Made by a program: the position numbers and the translations under genes. Shown one piece after another: positions 5,399 to 43,345 of a stretch of DNA of 43,652 bases. The notes beneath the pieces are model-generated. The model saw only the letters and a list, made by a program, of their open reading frames with translations. It was not told where the DNA came from and did no database searches. Position 1 is the first letter of the stretch. Each line of letters begins with the position of its first letter. This DNA is from a virus, in the UHGV virus genome UHGV-0201380. One strand, 5' to 3'.

Positions 5399-6456
5399 CC
5401 CTCCACAATATTATCGTATCCGCCCCAGTCTTCTACGACTCGGGTGCCTAGTTCAATCAGTTCTTCTTTAAAGCCGTAATCGGAGAACACCATTATGTAC
5501 TCCGCCGCCTTCTCTGGATTCTCCTGTACCCAGCTAACCAGTTGTTGTTTAGAAAGCTGCGATACTTCCCGGAACGCGGCCAGTAACTGCGGGTCCTCGT
5601 CCGGCGGCATATCCCACGGCTGCCGTAAACTGAGCGTCGATGCAGCGAGCCACTGGCATAGGTCTGGCTCTGCTACTGCCGGGTCCCGCTCAATAGGGAG
5701 GTGCGAGAACGTGCCGTCTTGTAGTACCCGCTCAAGCACCTGGCCCAGTATGTTCAGGTCCAGCACCTCATCCGGGGTGTGCTCGTGCATGTACCCTACA
5801 CCGACGTTGGTGCACTCAGGAATGATGCCAACGAACTCAGCCGAGTCAGTATAAACACCCTTCTGCAAGTGCTGCTCCGTGCGTCCCAGGCGCTCTGCTA
5901 GGGTCTTGGCAAAGGTGTCAGAGCAGCAGCGCATATACCTTTGATGCGTAATGATACCGTCGCCGCGGCGGTCGAAGCTAATCATCGCCTTGACCCCAGT
6001 CCAAAATCCAGAGTCATCCTTGACCGATGCAGCGCTACCCTCGCAGCCTACCTCTTCATCCACGAAGAAGCAGTAGCGTCCGTGCACGCCGCGCCGCAGC
6101 ATCTCCAGCATCAGGTAGATACCGGCGCCGCAGTCGGCGCCCAAGCAGTCAGCTTGTTGCGGATTCTTTACGAACAGCACGCCCTTGTTAGTGCAGCCGA
6201 CGTCCGGCGCAGCGCTGGTTGGTCGTGCCACTGTGTCGAGATGAGACGTAAACGCTACGTCACTTTGCTCTGAGTCCCCCACCAGCACGAAGTAGTTCCC
6301 GTGCTTGTCCTTTACGTAGTGCATACCACTACCCAGCGCCTGTAGCGACTGCATAAGCAGCGGCTCGAACCACTTAGTGCTACCCCAGCTAGGCCGGTGC
6401 GTTTGCAGTATCTGCAAGAGCAGCTGCATATCAATCCCGTGCGGATTCAAGAACAT
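5395..6456 (-). CDS. Predicted dinuclear-zinc peptidase-fold protein (M20/M28/M42-like motif pattern)
   Basis: 353 aa. Ordered motifs SHLDTV (HxD), GADCGAG (D), VDEEVGCEG (EE), GYMHEHTPDE (H) match the metal-ligand pattern of M20/M28/M42 peptidases. ATG is preceded by GAGGAGG and overlaps the stop of the upstream acidic protein. Function inferred from motif pattern only. Confidence 0.55.
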   Translation of the reverse strand: MFLNPHGIDMQLLLQILQTHRPSWGSTKWFEPLLMQSLQALGSGMHYVKDKHGNYFVLVGDSEQSDVAFTSHLDTVARPTSAAPDVGCTNKGVLFVKNPQQADCLGADCGAGIYLMLEMLRRGVHGRYCFFVDEEVGCEGSAASVKDDSGFWTGVKAMISFDRRGDGIITHQRYMRCCSDTFAKTLAERLGRTEQHLQKGVYTDSAEFVGIIPECTNVGVGYMHEHTPDEVLDLNILGQVLERVLQDGTFSHLPIERDPAVAEPDLCQWLAASTLSLRQPWDMPPDEDPQLLAAFREVSQLSKQQLVSWVQENPEKAAEYIMVFSDYGFKEELIELGTRVVEDWGGYDNIVEG

Positions 6457-8138
6457 TAAGCTGCCTCCTCTGCTTCTTCTTCATCTTCATCGTTGCCCAG
6501 GTACTTCTCTCCCAAGCAATCAGCTGCATGCTCAGTGAGAATTAACCCGTGCACTGGGTGTTCTTCTGCGTGCTCAATAAGCACTTGCCGGTCCTGTGCA
6601 AACACCAGTTCCTCTTGGTCGTGCACTACACCCTCTACTTCGCAGCGCTCTATGTCCTCGTCGTATACATAGGCGTCGTGGTAATCAGACCAGGTGCAGC
6701 TCCAGCGATTATGCAGACCATCACGCCCAACTACGTACACAAAATCCCCTTCTTCTACGCAGCCGTCGCAGACCATATCACCATCTGCGGTCTCCTGCAT
6801 GTCATCTACAGAGTAGCGACATTCACAGCAGCAGCACCGAGCAGACTCAGTGCCTACGTAGATGTATCCTTCTGAGTCTTGTGCCTCGTACTCATAAGCA
6901 TCACGGATTACAAAGGCATCATCCCCATACTCATCTACGCCGCACTGGCTGCTATCTAGGTATGGCATCAGCACTGCGCCGTTGTATGTTGGGTGCGGTA
7001 TTCGCGCCAGCATTACCCCTTCGAGACATTCAATGTTTTTGGTGTACCCATGCCCCCGCAGGATTGCATCCGCAGCGTTGCCGTAAGCGCGGACGTACTC
7101 GTTAGTTTCTGTGTTAACGATTGCCCGTGCCTGCACTTCGAAATCGTCGCCGAACAGCTCCCCGGTGTACTGGATGAACAGGCGCAGCCCATTATCCGGC
7201 AACCCGTGGCTGGTGGTAGCGTACGTCCGCACAGAGCTATGCTCAAATGAGTACCCGCTCATGCAGCTACCCGGGCCATTCTCGTAGGCGTCGTACCATT
7301 CCTGCTCGGTCTTGCACAGGTACGTTGTAGGGTCTACGTTCATAGCCTTGAGGTCTTCGATAGCATCGCGGAAGTCCACACCATTTCCGTAGTAGTTAGC
7401 GAGCCACTTACCTACGCGCATCTCTACGCAGCGGTACTCAGTAACTGCTGCGAAGTCCTTGTGCATCCGCGGCTGCCCCAGCATCACGATAGGTTCGCCG
7501 TTGCGGAAACCAAAGCCCAAAGGCACGGCGAATCTAGACACTACGAAGCCGTGCAACTTCATGAGCAGCGCAGCTAAGTTGCCATCGCGGGTGTGGCGGC
7601 CGTAATCGTAGCCAGTGTATAAGCGGCGCTGCTGCTCTTCTGGTGCAAGCATGATGCGCTCAAATAACTGCACGGCCTGCTTGTGCACCTTGTAACCTGT
7701 GAATTCTTCGACGCAAGCAACTACGCGCTCAACCACTACATCCTCGCCCTCATAGAAGTCGCGGCGGCGTTCCCAGAACTTGCTGTCTATGGTGATTCGC
7801 ACCGGTTCAAAGAGTTCGCAGAAAGTTCCGGACCGGTACAGGTCCACCTTTTGCAACGGGCCGAGCGTCATCGTTGATTCGCGATACTCTGGGTGCAGTG
7901 CCCCGCCTATAGTCACCTCTAAGCCTGGAGTGTGCGCACTGACAGTGCGGAGACCCATAAGCACCTGCAGCGGACCCTCAGTGTGGGGATGGTCCTCCCC
8001 TTGCATTTGCAAGTCCTGGAACGGGGTCCAGTAATCACCGCTGGAATACATTGATTCTTTAATCGGCAGTGCGTTTGCACCTTCCGGTAACACTACTTTC
8101 CATTCGATAGGTGCTGTGTTAGTTTCTTGCATTTTCAT
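6456..8138 (-). CDS. Large early/middle protein of unknown function with Cys cluster and polyacidic C-terminal tail
   Basis: Track ORF is 6456..8426 (656 aa), but its 5' end overlaps the upstream 114-aa gene. ATG codons at about 8138 and 8132 follow a GGGAG Shine-Dalgarno, giving about 560 aa. Contains CCCCECRYSVDDMQETADGDMVCDGC and ends DEDEEEAEEAA. Confidence 0.6.
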   Translation of the reverse strand: MKMQETNTAPIEWKVVLPEGANALPIKESMYSSGDYWTPFQDLQMQGEDHPHTEGPLQVLMGLRTVSAHTPGLEVTIGGALHPEYRESTMTLGPLQKVDLYRSGTFCELFEPVRITIDSKFWERRRDFYEGEDVVVERVVACVEEFTGYKVHKQAVQLFERIMLAPEEQQRRLYTGYDYGRHTRDGNLAALLMKLHGFVVSRFAVPLGFGFRNGEPIVMLGQPRMHKDFAAVTEYRCVEMRVGKWLANYYGNGVDFRDAIEDLKAMNVDPTTYLCKTEQEWYDAYENGPGSCMSGYSFEHSSVRTYATTSHGLPDNGLRLFIQYTGELFGDDFEVQARAIVNTETNEYVRAYGNAADAILRGHGYTKNIECLEGVMLARIPHPTYNGAVLMPYLDSSQCGVDEYGDDAFVIRDAYEYEAQDSEGYIYVGTESARCCCCECRYSVDDMQETADGDMVCDGCVEEGDFVYVVGRDGLHNRWSCTWSDYHDAYVYDEDIERCEVEGVVHDQEELVFAQDRQVLIEHAEEHPVHGLILTEHAADCLGEKYLGNDEDEEEAEEAA

Positions 8139-8178
8139 TTGCTCCCGAGTTAATAGAACTTCGTCATGCACTAAGAGT

Positions 8179-8523
8179 TCAGCGTGCGTACCACGCGGAG
8201 AGTTGTTGCTGCTTATAATAGGCGCGGACTGCGGCTCTAAATTGCTTAAAAGCTCCGCGGTATCCATTCCGCCGTAGTGCTGCAACCACATCGAATGCAA
8301 TGTGCTCTTGCAGCTTCCGCGCGGCAGACTCAGTGTACTCTCGATAGGTTGTGAGAACAGTGCCAATATCCTCTTTTCTAACTCGGAGTAATCGACGCTC
8401 AACTGGCACGATTTGCTTGAGTTCATTAGGAACCTCTTTGAATGTTTCCCAAGTGCAACCGCACTTGCCCTGCGTTTCCAGCAGACGCCAGCACAGCAGC
8501 GCTGTTTCGTCTACTGTGAGCAT
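8179..8523 (-). CDS. Hypothetical early protein
   Basis: 114-aa ORF; ATG preceded by AAGGA with about 6-nt spacing. No recognisable domain. Confidence 0.55.
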   Translation of the reverse strand: MLTVDETALLCWRLLETQGKCGCTWETFKEVPNELKQIVPVERRLLRVRKEDIGTVLTTYREYTESAARKLQEHIAFDVVAALRRNGYRGAFKQFRAAVRAYYKQQQLSAWYAR

Positions 8524-10966: not shown

Positions 10967-11383
10967 TCACTGGGAGCAAAAAGAGTAAGCAGACCCCCAA
11001 AGGTCTGCGTGCAGTAAACTATTGTAGTCCCCATAAGTCACGTCGAACTCTCGCCAGTTAGTATCGTACTCAGGACTAGCCAATAACTCATCCTTTGTGA
11101 AGCATCTCCCTTCCTGAATCTGTGCTAAGTGTATGGCCCGGTGAGTGTCAGCGCTAACCAGTATCAGGTTATTGAAGTCACAGTTAAGGCGGTTACTGTC
11201 ACAGTGATGTACGTGATAGCCAGAACCGTAGCTAGTGATTCCCAGAGCATCCATAACCACGGCCCTATGCAGCGCCACAGTCTTATAGTCTCTCTTACCT
11301 CGCTTATTCACATACTCAGGCCCAGCACCATTAATCACTGGATAACCTTCCTTATCAACCACAATCTTAAATGTTCTAGCCAC
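10967..11383 (-). CDS. HNH homing endonuclease
   Basis: 138 aa with HVHHCDSNRLNCDFNNLILVSADTHRAIH (HNH core). Free-standing, between the terminus repeat region and the early promoters. A GC hairpin plus T-run overlaps its last codons (about 10975..11008). Confidence 0.8.
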   Translation of the reverse strand: MARTFKIVVDKEGYPVINGAGPEYVNKRGKRDYKTVALHRAVVMDALGITSYGSGYHVHHCDSNRLNCDFNNLILVSADTHRAIHLAQIQEGRCFTKDELLASPEYDTNWREFDVTYGDYNSLLHADLWGSAYSFCSQ

Positions 11384-12205: not shown

Positions 12206-12667
12206 TCAGATATACACCTGCCCCGGGGTGAAGGCCTTGTGTTGCTCTTGACGTTTCTCTAGTACCCACTTGCAGATAACTTCGTAGGAGCTGTGCTTCT
12301 TCATGTAACGCTTACCGTCCTTCCAGAACTCCCCGCGCCAGCAGGTGCCAGTGTAGTATACACCCCTAGGATGTTCCCGCTTAGACCTGCGTGCGTTACA
12401 GTTGTTTTCGCTAACCGTAGCTAAGCGCAGGTTCTCTAATCTGTTGTCACCGGGGTTTTGGTTGATGTGGTCCACCACATATCCGTCTGGAATAGGCCCG
12501 TTGTGTAGTTCCCAGATGAGGCGGTGTGCCTGTATCTTTCTACCAGATACCTGTACCACCCAGTAGCCACGAGTGTTGCGGGTACCCGCTGGAGCACCGG
12601 CGCGCCTACCCTTGAGCCACACCAAGCAGCTAGGGGATGTTGTGTCATATTTGATGTTCATAGACAT
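12206..12667 (-). CDS. HNH homing endonuclease (HNH plus AP2-like DNA-binding region)
   Basis: 153 aa with HRLIWELHNGPIPDGYVVDHINQNPGDNRLENLRLATVSENNCNA. Last gene before the terminus region. The upstream intergenic region carries GTATCTCTA direct repeats. Confidence 0.85.
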   Translation of the reverse strand: MSMNIKYDTTSPSCLVWLKGRRAGAPAGTRNTRGYWVVQVSGRKIQAHRLIWELHNGPIPDGYVVDHINQNPGDNRLENLRLATVSENNCNARRSKREHPRGVYYTGTCWRGEFWKDGKRYMKKHSSYEVICKWVLEKRQEQHKAFTPGQVYI

Positions 12668-30290: not shown

Positions 30291-31310
30291 TTAGGACTTG
30301 GTGGTGAGGGTGAACTTGGTCACTGCAGCGGTGTCTGGACGACGCAGGCCGATGTTGTACATCGCGTAGCAGTCCAGTACGTTGCTGAACTCGCGCGTAT
30401 CGTCCCAGATACGGGAGGTGAACGGCTTGGCCTCAACAGTCACCAGGGTCTTGGACTTGCTGAAAGTCACCATACGGCACAGCGCGTCGTCAGGGGTGAC
30501 GGTGTAAGCAGAGCCCAGCGGGTGCGTACCAGCAGCGGTCGGGAACTCAGTGCACTCTACTACAGGCACTCCGTTCATCTTCACTACACGGCGGTCTTTG
30601 TAACCGTCGTTGTTGGATGCACCAAAGTCCAGGTTCAGGAGCTTCGGATGCTCCAGCAGACGCGAATAGGTATCGACATCCACCAGGGTAATCATGTCCG
30701 CCAGCGGAGTCTTACGCTTGATGAGCTCATCAATACCAGCCTTGTGGGCCAGGTTGATGTTCATGGCGTTCGCTTCCATCTCAGCCTGGGTCAGCTGCGT
30801 GGCGGTAGTGGTGCCCGGAACCAGGATAGAGGCACCCACTTCGATACCGTCGTTGAATGCCGGTTTAAGGTGCTCCGGAGCAACCCAGGAGCGGCCCTTG
30901 ATGAGCTGAATCAGGTGCGCCTGGTCGAAGGTCTCCGCGAACTCCGAGCCGTTGTTCTGGCCCATCTCAGTCAGGAAGTCCGGACCGGTCCAGTCATCCT
31001 GGTAGTCAATCGGGTTACGGATATACAGCACCGTATCCACCACGATAATCATCTTATCGTTACGGACCGGGGTGCTATCCAGCGCCTCGCCAGAGCGACG
31101 ACCCTTCACCGAAGAGGTGTTCAGGCGGTCAATACGGTAGGTATTGGAACCGCTGATAGAGCGCTGGCTGGATAGGCCCAGGAACAGAGCCTGGTACTGG
31201 AAGCGGGTGTCTACTTCATTCTGATACACTTCCAGGTGAATGTCTACATCAGATGCCGCGCCGCCCCAATGGGCTCGGGTCAGGGCGCTTTTATAGATAG
31301 TATCTGCCAT
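30291..31310 (-). CDS. Major capsid protein (T7 gp10-like)
   Basis: 339 aa. C-terminal CYAMYNIGLRRPDTAAV resembles T7 gp10 AKYAMGHGGLRPEAAGAV. Position after the scaffolding gene. Confidence 0.9.
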   Translation of the reverse strand: MADTIYKSALTRAHWGGAASDVDIHLEVYQNEVDTRFQYQALFLGLSSQRSISGSNTYRIDRLNTSSVKGRRSGEALDSTPVRNDKMIIVVDTVLYIRNPIDYQDDWTGPDFLTEMGQNNGSEFAETFDQAHLIQLIKGRSWVAPEHLKPAFNDGIEVGASILVPGTTTATQLTQAEMEANAMNINLAHKAGIDELIKRKTPLADMITLVDVDTYSRLLEHPKLLNLDFGASNNDGYKDRRVVKMNGVPVVECTEFPTAAGTHPLGSAYTVTPDDALCRMVTFSKSKTLVTVEAKPFTSRIWDDTREFSNVLDCYAMYNIGLRRPDTAAVTKFTLTTKS

Positions 31311-40548: not shown

Positions 40549-40567
40549 CTAAGGCCCCTAGGAGGGG
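40549..40567 (-). promoter_or_regulatory. Intergenic GC-rich hairpin (possible RNA processing or stability element)
   Basis: Minus strand GGCCCCT-CCT-AGGGGCC: 7-bp perfect stem with 3-nt loop, between the 262-aa gene stop and the next Shine-Dalgarno. No U-tract, so not a canonical terminator. Confidence 0.3.
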
Positions 40568-40592
40568 CCGTATTAGTTTAGGTTAGGGTTGA

Positions 40593-41381
40593 TTAGGCTT
40601 GAGGTGCGGCGGGTGCTGCTGGCGCCACAGGGGCTGCAGGGGCCACTGGTGCAGCCGGGGCTGCGGGTGCCTGCATAGCTGCCGGACTAGGAACCGAGCC
40701 AGCGTTCAGCAGAATATCCAGAGCACTGCCAGGGAAGTCTACAGCCTTGTACATATCCTCCTGAATCCAGTTCTTGCTCTTACCATCGTCGAAGGTGCCT
40801 TCGATGTGCAGGCTATCCCAGGTCTCTTTGGTTGGGTTGTTCCACAGGAACAGCTTAATCTCAGAGGCATCCATGGCAGGCATCTTGATAGGCTCGCCAG
40901 TGTTCGGGTCGAATTTCGGAATCGGGCGGATACCGGACAGGTCCACGATGTTGGACTTCTTGCCCGCGGCGCTGGTGTGCTCATCAATCGGGAAGGTGAA
41001 GGCCTGGCCCAGACGCTGTGCTGCATGCTTAATGCTATTGTCGTAGTTGAGCTTGTCGAAGAACTTCTTGAAGCCTGCGCGCTCAAAGTTACTGATAGCC
41101 ATCGGGAACGGGCGGATACGCTTCACTTCGCCGTTAGGACCGAACACTACAATGCCGATGCGTACGTTAGCTACTGCGGGCTTACCGGTCGGCTTGCCAC
41201 CCTTAGTCGGCAGGCGCTTACCGATTTCTACGTACTCGGTGAAGTAGCCGTAGTATTCACCCTTCGGCAGCAGCACGTCCTCATATGCGCCGCCCTGTGC
41301 GGTTTCCCGCATATCTACATCTTGGGTTCCGATTGCTGCGTCTACCAGAGCGTTCAGGGATGCCAATACATTCGTAGTCAT
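40593..41381 (-). CDS. Hypothetical protein with Pro/Ala-repeat C-terminal tail
   Basis: 262 aa; C-terminus PAAMQAPAAPAAPVAPAAPVAPAAPAAPQA is low-complexity. Lys/Gly-rich central region. No catalytic motif recognised. Confidence 0.55.
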   Translation of the reverse strand: MTTNVLASLNALVDAAIGTQDVDMRETAQGGAYEDVLLPKGEYYGYFTEYVEIGKRLPTKGGKPTGKPAVANVRIGIVVFGPNGEVKRIRPFPMAISNFERAGFKKFFDKLNYDNSIKHAAQRLGQAFTFPIDEHTSAAGKKSNIVDLSGIRPIPKFDPNTGEPIKMPAMDASEIKLFLWNNPTKETWDSLHIEGTFDDGKSKNWIQEDMYKAVDFPGSALDILLNAGSVPSPAAMQAPAAPAAPVAPAAPVAPAAPAAPQA

Positions 41382-41402
41382 ATAATTACGTCCTCGTTTA
41401 GT

Positions 41403-41972
41403 TTAAATGATATTTACGTGCAGATGCAGGGCTATGCGTTTGCACAGTCCTACGAAGTCATCGTGGTGCATGTCAGACTTCATATAGTTGCAGGTAGGGC
41501 AGCATGGCACACAGTTGTCTAAATGGTACCCAATGCGTGAATCCTTCCGGTCTATCCCGTTAGTGGGTACTGTGGATTTACGCGCCCATCTCCCACTGCC
41601 GAGTTCCCGGTAGGTACTGGGTGGCGCGCCGCAGTAATAACAATCTGCGCTTACTAAGGCCTTGGCGTCTTCCTTAGTAATACTCCTACCTAACTTAGTG
41701 CTAAAGGCCCATACCTTATTCGCCGATACTGTTAAGTCGTCCAGCTTATTAGGCGGAGTTCGTCCAGTATTCTTCTCACTTTGCCTGAGTTTAGTTTGAC
41801 ATCCGCAGTGACCAAGGCCGCCGCGCTTACTGGTATTGAATAGCTTAGTGCGTATCGCCTCAAACTCCTCGCCACAGTAAGGGCAGTCCCAGGTATAAAC
41901 AACCATACCGCGGAATCTCTTTCCTGTATCAGTCTTTGGTTTTATCTCTTGCACACCACCTTCCGGAATCAT
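41403..41972 (-). CDS. Zinc-finger protein with degenerate HNH-like nuclease motif
   Basis: Track ORF starts at TTG 41975, with an ATG at about 41972; an alternative ATG at about 41906 avoids overlap with the phosphoesterase gene. CPYCGEEF and HCGCQ Cys pairs; C-terminal NGIDRKDSRIGYHLDNCVPCCPTCNYMK resembles an HNH core with His replaced. Confidence 0.45.
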   Translation of the reverse strand: MIPEGGVQEIKPKTDTGKRFRGMVVYTWDCPYCGEEFEAIRTKLFNTSKRGGLGHCGCQTKLRQSEKNTGRTPPNKLDDLTVSANKVWAFSTKLGRSITKEDAKALVSADCYYCGAPPSTYRELGSGRWARKSTVPTNGIDRKDSRIGYHLDNCVPCCPTCNYMKSDMHHDDFVGLCKRIALHLHVNII

Positions 41973-42918
41973 CAAGCAGCATCGGGATTAACTGCGGACA
42001 GCCCTCGGTGATTACCATCACACCCAGGATTGGTTTCTTGCGGGTGAGTCTGCCGTAAGCAAAGGCCATGCTCTTACGGTCAATCAGACACCCAGCATAC
42101 GCACCAAAGTACAAAGCTGTTGAGCTAGCTGCATATTGCACCTCAAAGCGACCATGTTCGTGACCAAGGACAAGGCTGGTTCTTTCGTGGCTAGCGTTGA
42201 GCATGAAGTCACCCGACACTTGATGCTGGAATCTAACCGGGCCAAGTGGGGTATTGAGTACCCATGCGTCAGCCCAAGACCACGCCGGGGCACCATGCTC
42301 AGGGAAAAGTATATCTCGGTACTTCTTGATGAATTGCACTGGTAGCCCGTGAGCTTTCGCCCTGCGGTAAACCAGACTGCCGTGATTGGAATCGCAAACC
42401 AGTAGGTTCGGGAATAGTTCATGCAGCTCCTCCAGTACGAGCTTGGCTTTCTCCAGCTCCACCCCGGCGCTATCTAGGTTCGGGTTACTTTCGTGGAATG
42501 ATATAGCGTGGCCGTCCGTCTCGTCGCCTACCTGTACAACCATGTCCGGACAGTAGGCGTCTCGCACAGATTCTAAGAAGGCCATAGCATCTACGTGCGT
42601 ATAGGGGGCATGCAAATCCCCAACTACGAGAATACGGTGGCACACTTCCGGCACGAAGGTTTTGCCGATGTCATCAGTGGGACTGGGCTGTATGAGCTTT
42701 AGTGCCTCCTTCATGTGGGATATTGCCTTACCCTTGCTCCCAGCGTGGTCTAGGAATATGCTGCGCCAGTACTTCACCATCTGTCGATACACCACTGGCT
42801 CGTCCAGTCCCGCCAGATTATTATAGGCGGCAGCAGCATCCACGTTAGAGCTGTGCTTGCTCAAGATATCTATGTGTTGCTCTTTGGTGAATAGCTTTAT
42901 TGTGTTTAACTTAGGCAT
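41929..42918 (-). CDS. Calcineurin-like metallophosphoesterase (Ser/Thr protein phosphatase / phosphodiesterase superfamily)
   Basis: 329 aa with the ordered motifs VVGDLHAPY (GDxH), VQVGDETDGH (GDxxD), CDSNHGS (GNH[DE]-like) and LGHEHGRF (GH-x-H). Substrate cannot be assigned. Confidence 0.8.
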   Translation of the reverse strand: MPKLNTIKLFTKEQHIDILSKHSSNVDAAAAYNNLAGLDEPVVYRQMVKYWRSIFLDHAGSKGKAISHMKEALKLIQPSPTDDIGKTFVPEVCHRILVVGDLHAPYTHVDAMAFLESVRDAYCPDMVVQVGDETDGHAISFHESNPNLDSAGVELEKAKLVLEELHELFPNLLVCDSNHGSLVYRRAKAHGLPVQFIKKYRDILFPEHGAPAWSWADAWVLNTPLGPVRFQHQVSGDFMLNASHERTSLVLGHEHGRFEVQYAASSTALYFGAYAGCLIDRKSMAFAYGRLTRKKPILGVMVITEGCPQLIPMLLDDSGRWCARDKTKD

Positions 42919-43345
42919 TCCAGCTCCTGTTACTTATTACGTCACTAATTACATGTACACCTACACCGTACTTATTAGCAAAGTGTTGCCGCATACCTTT
43001 CTTGTATGGGATATAGTTATCCCTGATATCCTGCACAGCATCCCAAGTTAACTGCGCTTTTGGGTTCCTATCCCCACGCACATCTGGGTTCCTTCCGCGC
43101 TCTGCACGGTCCCGCATATTATCCATATGCGTTCCCAATACTAAGTGCTTAGGGTTAATGCACCTGGGGTTATCGCAGGTATGTCTAACAGACAGGCCAG
43201 CCAGCGCCCTTATATCCAGCCCGTTATGCTCAGCATACACCACCCGATGCAGCAGCTCCAATCGCCTGGTCGGCTTATACCATGCCCGGCGGTATCCGTT
43301 CTTGTTAAGGCATTTGTTATACCCGTGGTCAATACACATCGACAT
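42911..43345 (-). CDS. HNH homing endonuclease
   Basis: 144 aa with HRVVYAEHNG ... HTCDNPRCINPKHLVLGTHMDNM. Overlaps the phosphoesterase start by 8 nt. Confidence 0.85.
   Translation of the reverse strand: MSMCIDHGYNKCLNKNGYRRAWYKPTRRLELLHRVVYAEHNGLDIRALAGLSVRHTCDNPRCINPKHLVLGTHMDNMRDRAERGRNPDVRGDRNPKAQLTWDAVQDIRDNYIPYKKGMRQHFANKYGVGVHVISDVISNRSWNA

Follow-up and report, generated by a model that had tools for sequence, protein, structure and literature searches.

Which protein coats single-stranded DNA (ssDNA) in the replisome of the phiKMV/KP34-like phages? Podophages of the phiKMV, KP34 and Fri1 types are much used in therapy against Klebsiella, Pseudomonas and Acinetobacter, and their replisomal ssDNA-binding protein (SSB) is unassigned. 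A preliminary description of the genome studied here had recognised neither a T7 gp2.5-like SSB nor a DNA ligase, and had pointed instead to a 262-aa protein with a Pro/Ala-repeat tail as a possible divergent SSB-like DNA-binding or recombination protein. Having analysed the gene, its relatives and its predicted product, we consider it likely that this protein is the phage's own SSB, replacing T7 gp2.5 in the phiKMV/KP34-like phages.

The gene and its place in the replication module

The window, that is, the whole stretch of 43,652 nucleotides that was analysed, is the entire genome of a Klebsiella Drulisvirus (KP34/phiKMV-like Autographiviridae) in circularly permuted form. All of its genes lie on the minus strand, and its close relatives are Klebsiella phages of ~43-44 kb. 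The open reading frame reported earlier was confirmed by translation: it runs from an ATG at 41381 to 40593, stop codon included, and encodes 262 aa (Table 1). A GC-rich hairpin lies 24 nt past the stop codon, immediately 5' of the ribosome-binding site of the next gene, and is possibly a transcript end or a processing/stabilising structure. The terminator-like scan of the sequence returned a hairpin count not above that of shuffles, and the hairpin is listed as a descriptive feature only.

Table 1. Features of the 262-aa gene, its flanks and its predicted product (residue numbers refer to the protein)
Feature	Position in window	Strand	Basis
Complete CDS, predicted phage ssDNA-binding protein	40593..41381	-	phrog_862 / PHA02030; phiKMV and LUZ19 gp21 orthologue
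Shine-Dalgarno-like GAGGA, 9 nt 5' of ATG	41391..41395	-	Seen in sequence
N-terminal helix, residues 5-19	41325..41369	-	AlphaFold model, DSSP
Flexible linker, residues 20-40, motif D23...G30-G31 (DxDM..T..GG)	41262..41324	-	Low pLDDT, alignment A1
OB-fold core, residues 41-146, predicted ssDNA-binding domain	40944..41261	-	
Conserved C-terminal subdomain, residues 147-236, compact	40674..40943	-	
Disordered uncharged Pro/Ala(/Val) tail, residues 237-262	40596..40673	-	pLDDT blocks 53-70; composition
GC-rich hairpin GGCCCCT-AGG-AGGGGCC	40553..40569	.	Terminator-like scan

Read in the direction of transcription, the module begins with the genes for primase, a DnaB-like helicase and DNA polymerase, after which the window wraps. 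Past the wrap come an HNH endonuclease, a metallophosphoesterase, another HNH/endonuclease-VII-like gene and then the 262-aa gene. Five short ORFs, three of them 84-124 aa long and the other two 53 aa, lie on its 3' side, ahead of a 5'-3' exonuclease, endonuclease VII and a kinase-like protein; RNA polymerase and the structural genes come after these. The gene is situated between DNA polymerase and the 5'-3' exonuclease, in the replication-associated middle region to which it had been attributed.

The order of DNA polymerase, this gene (a member of family phrog_862, see below), 5'-3' exonuclease and endonuclease VII, with RNA polymerase behind them, was found in all annotated phages examined. 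The set comprised the window, AttikonH1, phiKMV, LUZ19, Xp10, Atu_ph03, forsur, Cd1, Palo and a Bradyrhizobium element, so that the synteny spans phages of Agrobacterium, Rhizobium, E. coli and Caulobacter too. The family gene directly adjoins the exonuclease gene in phiKMV, LUZ19, Cd1 and the Bradyrhizobium element (L012), and is separated from it by small ORFs in the window, AttikonH1, Atu_ph03 and Palo. A scan of genome contigs with alignment A1 gave three loci, two of which are Bradyrhizobium T7-like elements with the same synteny. In the LUZ19 and phiKMV records, a phage-specific promoter is located directly 5' of the orthologous gene, gp21.

We observed no other candidate with the signature of a known SSB. 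PHROGs scans of 20 other early/middle ORFs, and Pfam searches with 10 of these, returned neither an SSB nor a ligase; the PHROGs matches among the 20 were to primase, helicase, polymerase, nucleases, the kinase-like protein, RNA polymerase and four HNH/homing-type endonucleases. E. coli SSB, T7 gp2.5, N4 SSB and DUF669 queries found nothing in a six-frame translation of the whole window, and tblastn and phmmer searches of the window with E. coli SSB gave nothing better than E 0.6. These searches agree with the earlier statement that no T7 gp2.5-like SSB or DNA ligase could be recognised in the genome. In a small sample of genomes, T7 has gp2.5 and no phrog_862 member, whereas phiKMV, Xp10 and the window have phrog_862 and none of gp2.5, E. 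coli SSB, N4 SSB or DUF669. Homologues of gp2.5 occur in 1303 records, mostly of Studiervirinae-type phages of 38-41 kb.

Separately, we note a 656-aa early protein with an acidic tail, which is a conceivable alternative replisome SSB.

A large and uncurated phage family

The 262-aa protein matched a single PHROGs family, phrog_862 ('unknown function'), with E 1.1e-80 over residues 6-260. Homologues are present in 878 phage records (a family of roughly 900-1000), nearly all of them annotated as 'hypothetical', from phages of hosts including Klebsiella, Pseudomonas, Acinetobacter, Pectobacterium, Vibrio, Ralstonia, Rhizobium and Caulobacter. An exhaustive profile search yielded 907 clusters (50% identity) at E<=1e-3, 702 of them at E<=1e-10, and a search of 5.8 billion sequences gave 139 homologues at E<=1e-3, the best being 94% identical. 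LUZ19 gp21 is 36% identical to the protein (E 2e-40), and 37L of the Xanthomonas siphophage Xp10 is also a homologue (hhalign probability 98.3%, E 2e-14). With so many relatives, there is no doubt that the gene is genuine.

Pfam and NCBIfam searches with the 262-aa protein returned no match. When 147 diverse relatives were searched against Pfam, no family was matched by any of them, neither the DUF669 nor the SSB models, and searches of the PDB by sequence, with the single protein and with the A1 and A2 profiles, gave noise only. The family is uncurated, with no Pfam model and no solved structure. In GenBank, the orthologue carries the label 'single strand DNA binding protein' in the AttikonH1 record and 'DNA-binding protein' in that of Cronobacter phage Peggy. 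Two other labels were set aside: 'large tegument protein' is uninformative and most likely reflects low-complexity Pro/Ala similarity, and 'Fe-S oxidoreductase' was taken as an artefact of low-complexity similarity or label transfer. Thus the SSB label already exists in at least one GenBank record, and SSBs that combine an OB fold with a disordered tail are known. The family itself is uncurated, with an extra conserved subdomain and no detectable kinship to gp2.5, and in this lineage it has an unusual non-acidic tail.

The predicted structure contains an OB fold

Structure prediction, which the preliminary description had proposed as a check for an OB fold, gave a confident AlphaFold2 model of canonical OB topology (81-sequence alignment; mean pLDDT 87.0, pTM 0.73, core blocks 92-97). 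The core consists of strands b1 (residues 41-56), b2 (70-80), b3 (86-89), b4 (127-136) and b5 (142-146), with helices at 103-111 and 120-123 and a Lys/Gly/Pro loop, GKRLPTKGGKPTGKP, at residues 54-68. The term 'Lys/Gly-rich', which had been applied to the protein, holds for this loop and not for the protein as a whole, whose composition (Lys 7.3%, Gly 8.0%) and pI of 5.97 are those of the entire 262 residues. In the linker that leads into the core, residues 28-30 have a pLDDT of <50, and in alignment A1 D23 is invariant and G30 and G31 are >=90% conserved.

The best-conserved part of the family is not the OB fold; it is the C-terminal subdomain, residues 147-236, with the pattern ..FLWnnPTkEtWDSL.IEG...SKNwiQE....A.dFpGSaL..LL. 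As a guess, this subdomain could serve oligomerisation or the docking of a partner.

Foldseek searches with the model gave best PDB matches that include SSB and PriB, with weak TM-scores of 0.16-0.20 on query length. One BFVD DUF669 protein matched the model with E 3.9e-5, and T7 gp2.5 was absent among the top structural matches listed. The 262-aa protein is predicted to have an OB-fold DNA-binding core, according to a model whose fold-match scores are modest.

The C-terminal tail is uncharged and varies in length

The protein ends in ...MQAPAAPAAPVAPAAPVAPAAPAAPQA, in which the tail string quoted in the preliminary description, PAAPAAPVAPAAPVAPAAPAAP, is found exactly. The last 26 residues, ending in ...APQA, contain no D, E, K or R and no aromatic residue; together with the low pLDDT, this agrees with the earlier view of the tail as flexible and non-acidic. 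Seven overlapping PxxP motifs with a 3-residue periodicity occur in residues 237-262, which form the only PxxP-dense segment among the 24 window proteins checked, and the underlying DNA is an imperfect 18-bp tandem repeat (40615-40661). In the AttikonH1 orthologue, which is 94% identical, a single in-frame gap accounts for a tail that is 15 residues longer. A length change of this size between such similar proteins fits a tail that is spacer-like or weakly interacting rather than a precise motif.

The acidic tails of SSBs compete with DNA for the binding cleft (PMC7145534). Because it is without acidic residues, the tail of the 262-aa protein cannot compete in this way. The idea that the linker of E. 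coli SSB binds the OB folds of partners through its PxxP motifs has been tested and is unsupported (PMC7145534; PMC10164576), and for that reason we do not rely on it here.

Some relatives carry the C-terminal tip of bacterial SSB

To look across the family, we sorted the C-termini of 261 phrog_862 members. About half (122/261) have uncharged PxxP-repeat tails, as in the window phage and phiKMV, and 20 of the 261 end in ...D(A/P)LAxLGL. A further type of ending, found in 13 of the 261, is the C-terminal tip of bacterial SSBs, [DE]x(0-1)[ILVMF]P[FWY]; nine of these 13 conform to the strict form D[DE][ILV]P[FWY]. Examples are P0221 (...GDFDDDIPF), P0169 (...ELDDDIPF) and another member ending in ...DADDDIPY, as well as the protein of the cultured Caulobacter phage Cd1 (...DPLDDIPF). 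The tip of E. coli SSB is MDFDDDIPF (PMC7145534), and P0221 matches it at 8 of the last 9 residues. Given typical residue frequencies, we estimate that such endings would arise by chance in well under one per 261 proteins.

That a conserved core should repeatedly bear the SSB 'hub' peptide, at the end of a disordered linker, is difficult to account for if this core is anything other than an SSB. The tail of the window protein is itself tipless, and the argument would extend to it by homology, through its tipped relatives. The tails are the most informative independent evidence that these proteins are SSBs. Together with the OB-fold model, they support the earlier suggestion of a divergent SSB-like DNA-binding or recombination protein, and our searches produced neither a confident assignment to an unrelated family nor a canonical SSB elsewhere in the genome.

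Data on orthologues and alternative functions

Experimental data within the family are limited to LUZ19/phiKMV gp21 and concern abundance and toxicity. On 2D gels, Lavigne et al. 2013 (PMC3604761) identified LUZ19 Gp21 as one of two early/late-early phage proteins that exceeded all others in amount, and such abundance fits a stoichiometric ssDNA coat. Its expression from a single copy caused immediate growth arrest of P. aeruginosa, with transcription and translation reduced by 20-25% and thymidine incorporation unchanged, and its function was considered unpredictable by the authors (PMC3604761). Toxicity would be no surprise in an overexpressed protein that coats nucleic acid. That DNA synthesis was unchanged is neutral to mildly awkward for an SSB; titration of host replication forks would not obviously leave thymidine incorporation unchanged, and this counts against the assignment. 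Further points may be held against it: sequence comparisons gave no significant link to gp2.5, N4 SSB or any PDB chain, gp2.5 is absent among the top structural matches listed, the window protein itself has no acidic tip, and the highest conservation in the family is in the non-OB C-terminal subdomain. Our literature search on phiKMV/LUZ19/KP34 gp21 found no paper testing SSB function or ssDNA binding.

Because the gene is just upstream of the exonuclease and endonuclease VII genes in all phages examined, and PHROGs scans of the window detected no recognisable recombinase, the protein might instead be a dedicated annealing/recombination partner of the 5'-3' exonuclease, acting in the manner of Red-alpha/beta while host SSB serves the fork. 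T7 gp2.5 itself combines SSB and annealing activities. We think such a dedicated role unlikely: the predicted fold is OB rather than Rad52/Red-beta/Erf-like or RecA-like, the tips found in relatives mark SSBs and not annealing proteins, and the very high abundance of LUZ19 Gp21 fits a stoichiometric coat. By analogy with gp2.5, annealing and SSB roles would be compatible and need not exclude one another.

The effects of LUZ19 Gp21 on growth, transcription and translation, with DNA synthesis unaffected (PMC3604761), would suit a host take-over effector that acts on transcription or translation and has no SSB role. There is a precedent in N4 SSB, a phage SSB which, judging from a reference title in PMC3604761, has a second activity on host RNA polymerase. 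Strict synteny within the replication module across phages of Klebsiella, Pseudomonas, Caulobacter, Agrobacterium and Xanthomonas argues for a core replication role and not a host-specific effector, the OB fold and the SSB tips point the same way, and the toxicity is unsurprising for a coat protein; we regard a pure take-over effector as quite improbable.

The name of NCBIfam model NF046043, 'phage replication initiation protein, NGO0469 family', raises the idea of an initiator of replication, since relatives score against this model (Cd1, E 3.8e-14; Xp10 37L, E 7e-8; phiKMV gp21, E 6.5e-4), although at 19-53 bits they are all below its curated cut-off of 75 bits and the 262-aa protein itself does not match. 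The NGO0469 label derives, without any experiment, from BLAST searches of 2007 in which a nanovirus Rep and a primase were matched at 26-32% identity over 87-109 residues (PMC1931599). None of the features of an initiator (nuclease, HUH, helicase or winged helix) is predicted for the 262-aa protein, and we regard an initiator as very improbable. A structural or internal virion protein, as suggested by the label 'structural protein' in the record of Pectobacterium phage PPWS1 and by LC-MS/MS detection of the orthologue g26 (without an HHpred match in 2019) in purified particles of Klebsiella phage fHe-Kpn01, is scarcely credible, as those particles likewise held metallophosphoesterase, exonuclease and endonuclease VII, so that detection is not discriminating, and the gene lies in the middle and not the late region.

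A proposed model for the 262-aa protein as a phage SSB

Returning to the protein as the phage's own SSB, we infer ssDNA binding, roles at the fork and in recombination, and roles for the subdomain and tail, as follows. The protein would be a functional counterpart of T7 gp2.5, built on a different OB-fold family that has diverged far, and would be made on a large scale alongside the DNA-metabolism (middle) genes. Its OB core (residues ~41-146) would coat the ssDNA opened at the fork by the phage DnaB-like helicase, and also ssDNA that the neighbouring 5'-3' exonuclease exposes as it removes primers or takes part in recombination; given the position upstream of the exonuclease gene, gp2.5-like annealing is conceivable. 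Subdomain 147-236 could provide self-association or docking to phage replication proteins. The disordered tail would be the counterpart of the linker-plus-tip of SSB. In tipped relatives, the SSB-Ct presumably engages host SSB-interacting proteins. In the tipless window phage and phiKMV, its place would be taken by a variable-length, uncharged PxxP (polyproline-II-like) repeat, probably a flexible spacer or an element for weak self- or partner interaction rather than an acidic autoinhibitory hub.

A broader proposal, which we put forward tentatively and hold to be possible though doubtful, is that phrog_862 is an unrecognised major clade of phage SSBs with interchangeable C-terminal 'address tags'. 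The tags may be a mimic of the host SSB-Ct (...DDDIPF), the ...D-x-LAxLGL tip and the uncharged PxxP/polyproline-II repeat. By this proposal the SSBs of phiKMV/KP34-like phages would stand off the host SSB-interactome, their charge-free tail would organise the phage replisome or its condensates, and the same protein would also act as a growth-arrest factor, as seen with LUZ19 Gp21.

If the protein is an SSB, the replication module of these phages is complete, the abundance and toxicity of LUZ19 Gp21 are simply explained, and a family of ~900 clusters at 50% identity is added to the OB-fold SSBs. Three types of tail on one conserved core would amount to a natural experiment on what decides whether a viral SSB works with host or with viral partners. 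The tails also bear on the role of a non-acidic SSB tail, a question of interest because there is dispute over what PxxP motifs do in the linker of E. coli SSB (PMC7145534, PMC10164576).

Comparison with known SSBs

Like bacterial SSB, the family can be divided into three parts: an OB core, a low-complexity disordered PxxP linker and, in 13 of 261 relatives, a tip. Unlike bacterial SSB, the 262-aa protein has no acidic tip and adds an N-terminal helix and a C-terminal subdomain. There is no sequence homology, with no Pfam match to the bacterial SSB family (PF00436) for the protein or the 147 relatives, and the structural scores are weak.

N4 SSB and DUF669 have been joined at 98% HHsearch probability as predicted diverged OB-fold SSBs (Kazlauskas et al. 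2016, PMC4889955). With hhalign, profile A2 and DUF669 (PF05037) gave a probability of 30.7% (P 5.3e-4), which is suggestive at most. The control comparison of N4 SSB with DUF669 scored lower still (probability 11%, P 2.8e-3, versus the published 98%), the profiles being too shallow to give the test much power. The N4 SSB (gp45, phrog_743) was not significant in hhalign as a single sequence, and its 55-sequence profile gave P 0.12 against A2. The three pairwise alignments of phrog_862, N4 SSB and DUF669 were mutually inconsistent, and a search of the PDB with the DUF669 profile found no solved relative. What the three families share is that they are confined to phages and unlinked to classical SSBs by sequence searches, and the DUF669 consensus ends in ...DDDLPF. 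Compared by secondary-structure layout, an AlphaFold model of N4 SSB (pLDDT 85) resembles that of the 262-aa protein in its N-terminal helix, floppy GG linker, beta-barrel with an inserted helix, C-terminal helices and disordered non-acidic tail. It differs in an extra long beta-hairpin and in having no SKN..QE..GS.L subdomain motif.

The orthologues LUZ19 and phiKMV gp21 have the same synteny and the same kind of Pro/Ala/Val-rich uncharged tail; at 349 aa versus 262 aa, they are extended by a b2-b3 insertion and a much longer tail.

As to T7 gp2.5, the 262-aa protein is not a member of that family (PF21265 / PF10991): it has no Pfam or profile match, and hhalign of A1 and A2 against gp2.5 gave a probability of 0.1%, whereas gp2.5 itself, as a control, scored 1e-89 in Pfam. 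The gp2.5 gene precedes primase and helicase, and the 262-aa gene follows polymerase; the T7 tail is strongly acidic with F as its last residue, that of the window protein is uncharged Pro/Ala, and gp2.5 has no equivalent of the conserved C-terminal subdomain. Nevertheless, both are proteins of an Autographiviridae replication module, of similar length (232 versus 262 aa), with an OB core and a flexible C-terminal tail. Gp2.5 is recorded in the database as having SSB and annealing activities, and abundance is expected for both proteins. The slot of gp2.5 is the most plausible function for the 262-aa protein.

Variation in the tail and in the gene

Among near-identical Drulisviruses, the Pro/Ala tail of the predicted ssDNA-binding protein varies in length: the target has 262 aa, versus 273-282 aa in closer full-length relatives (78-94% identity). 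Relative to phage AttikonH1, the tail contains one in-frame 15-codon gap, which lies inside the repeat and is consistent with replication slippage.

The product of the Xp10 homologue, gene 37L, is 201 aa, and the conserved C-terminal subdomain of the phrog_862 family (EMWESIYIPG...SKNVLQELIKSATDW) is encoded beyond it in a different frame. This subdomain sits in the 'intergenic' gap ahead of the exonuclease gene 36L, where a second match to the family HMM was found (E 7.6e-11). A frameshift appears to truncate 37L; the change of frame could be genuine or could stem from an error in sequencing.

Genomic surroundings

Four genes in the window code for endonucleases of the HNH or homing type. One of them lies immediately upstream of the target and has phrog_1035 (endonuclease VII) as its best match; it overlaps the phosphoesterase gene at the end of the latter, takes the place of two small ORFs found in AttikonH1, and looks like a mobile insertion. 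On the other side, a hairpin lies 24 nt past the target stop and immediately ahead of the RBS of the next gene. Rhizobium phage Palo has an annotated terminator in the corresponding position, and the hairpin may mark a transcript end or processing site for the highly expressed target gene.

A T7-like module with DNA polymerase, SSB-like protein, exonuclease, and single-subunit RNA polymerase is present within large bacterial contigs of Bradyrhizobium sp. LTSP885 (503 kb) and B. retamae. This location suggests Autographiviridae-like elements, integrated or carried.

Features discussed, with window positions unless another locus is named
Feature	Position	Strand	Remark
Target Pro/Ala tail	40596-40673		compared with L001 14621-15454 (AttikonH1)
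Xp10 37L region	L004 6610-6890 (NC_004902 about 30609-30889)	minus	family-HMM match
Upstream endonuclease gene	41403-41975	minus	HNH/homing-type
Other endonuclease genes	42911-43345, 12206-12667, 10967-11383	minus	HNH/homing-type
Hairpin GGCCCCT-AGG-AGGGGCC	40553-40569		perfect 7-bp, GC-rich
Member with D(A/P)LAxLGL tail, Atu_ph03	L006 5938-6810		
Member with D(A/P)LAxLGL tail, Palo	L009 1483-2373		
Member with D(A/P)LAxLGL tail, Bradyrhizobium	L012 5902-6837		
D(A/P)LAxLGL tail, family proteins	P0233-P0264		
656-aa early protein	6456-8426	minus	phrog_6980

Other tail types

Target aside, an acidic tail of the replisome style (...GNDEDEEEAEEAA) is present in the genome only at the end of a 656-aa protein, the largest early protein in the window without an assignment; a Pfam search with this protein gave no match.

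Within phrog_862, tails ending in ...D(A/P)LAxLGL form a third class (20 of the 261 members). The named examples, Atu_ph03, Palo, and Bradyrhizobium, have alphaproteobacterial hosts, and the motif was found in none of the other proteins of these three loci.

Tail chemistry also differs sharply between two phage SSB groups: N4-type SSBs carry a non-acidic Gly/Pro/Lys tail with a terminal SLFGKK in which L and F are invariant (alignments A3/A5), whereas the DUF669 consensus ends in ...DDDLPF (alignment A4).
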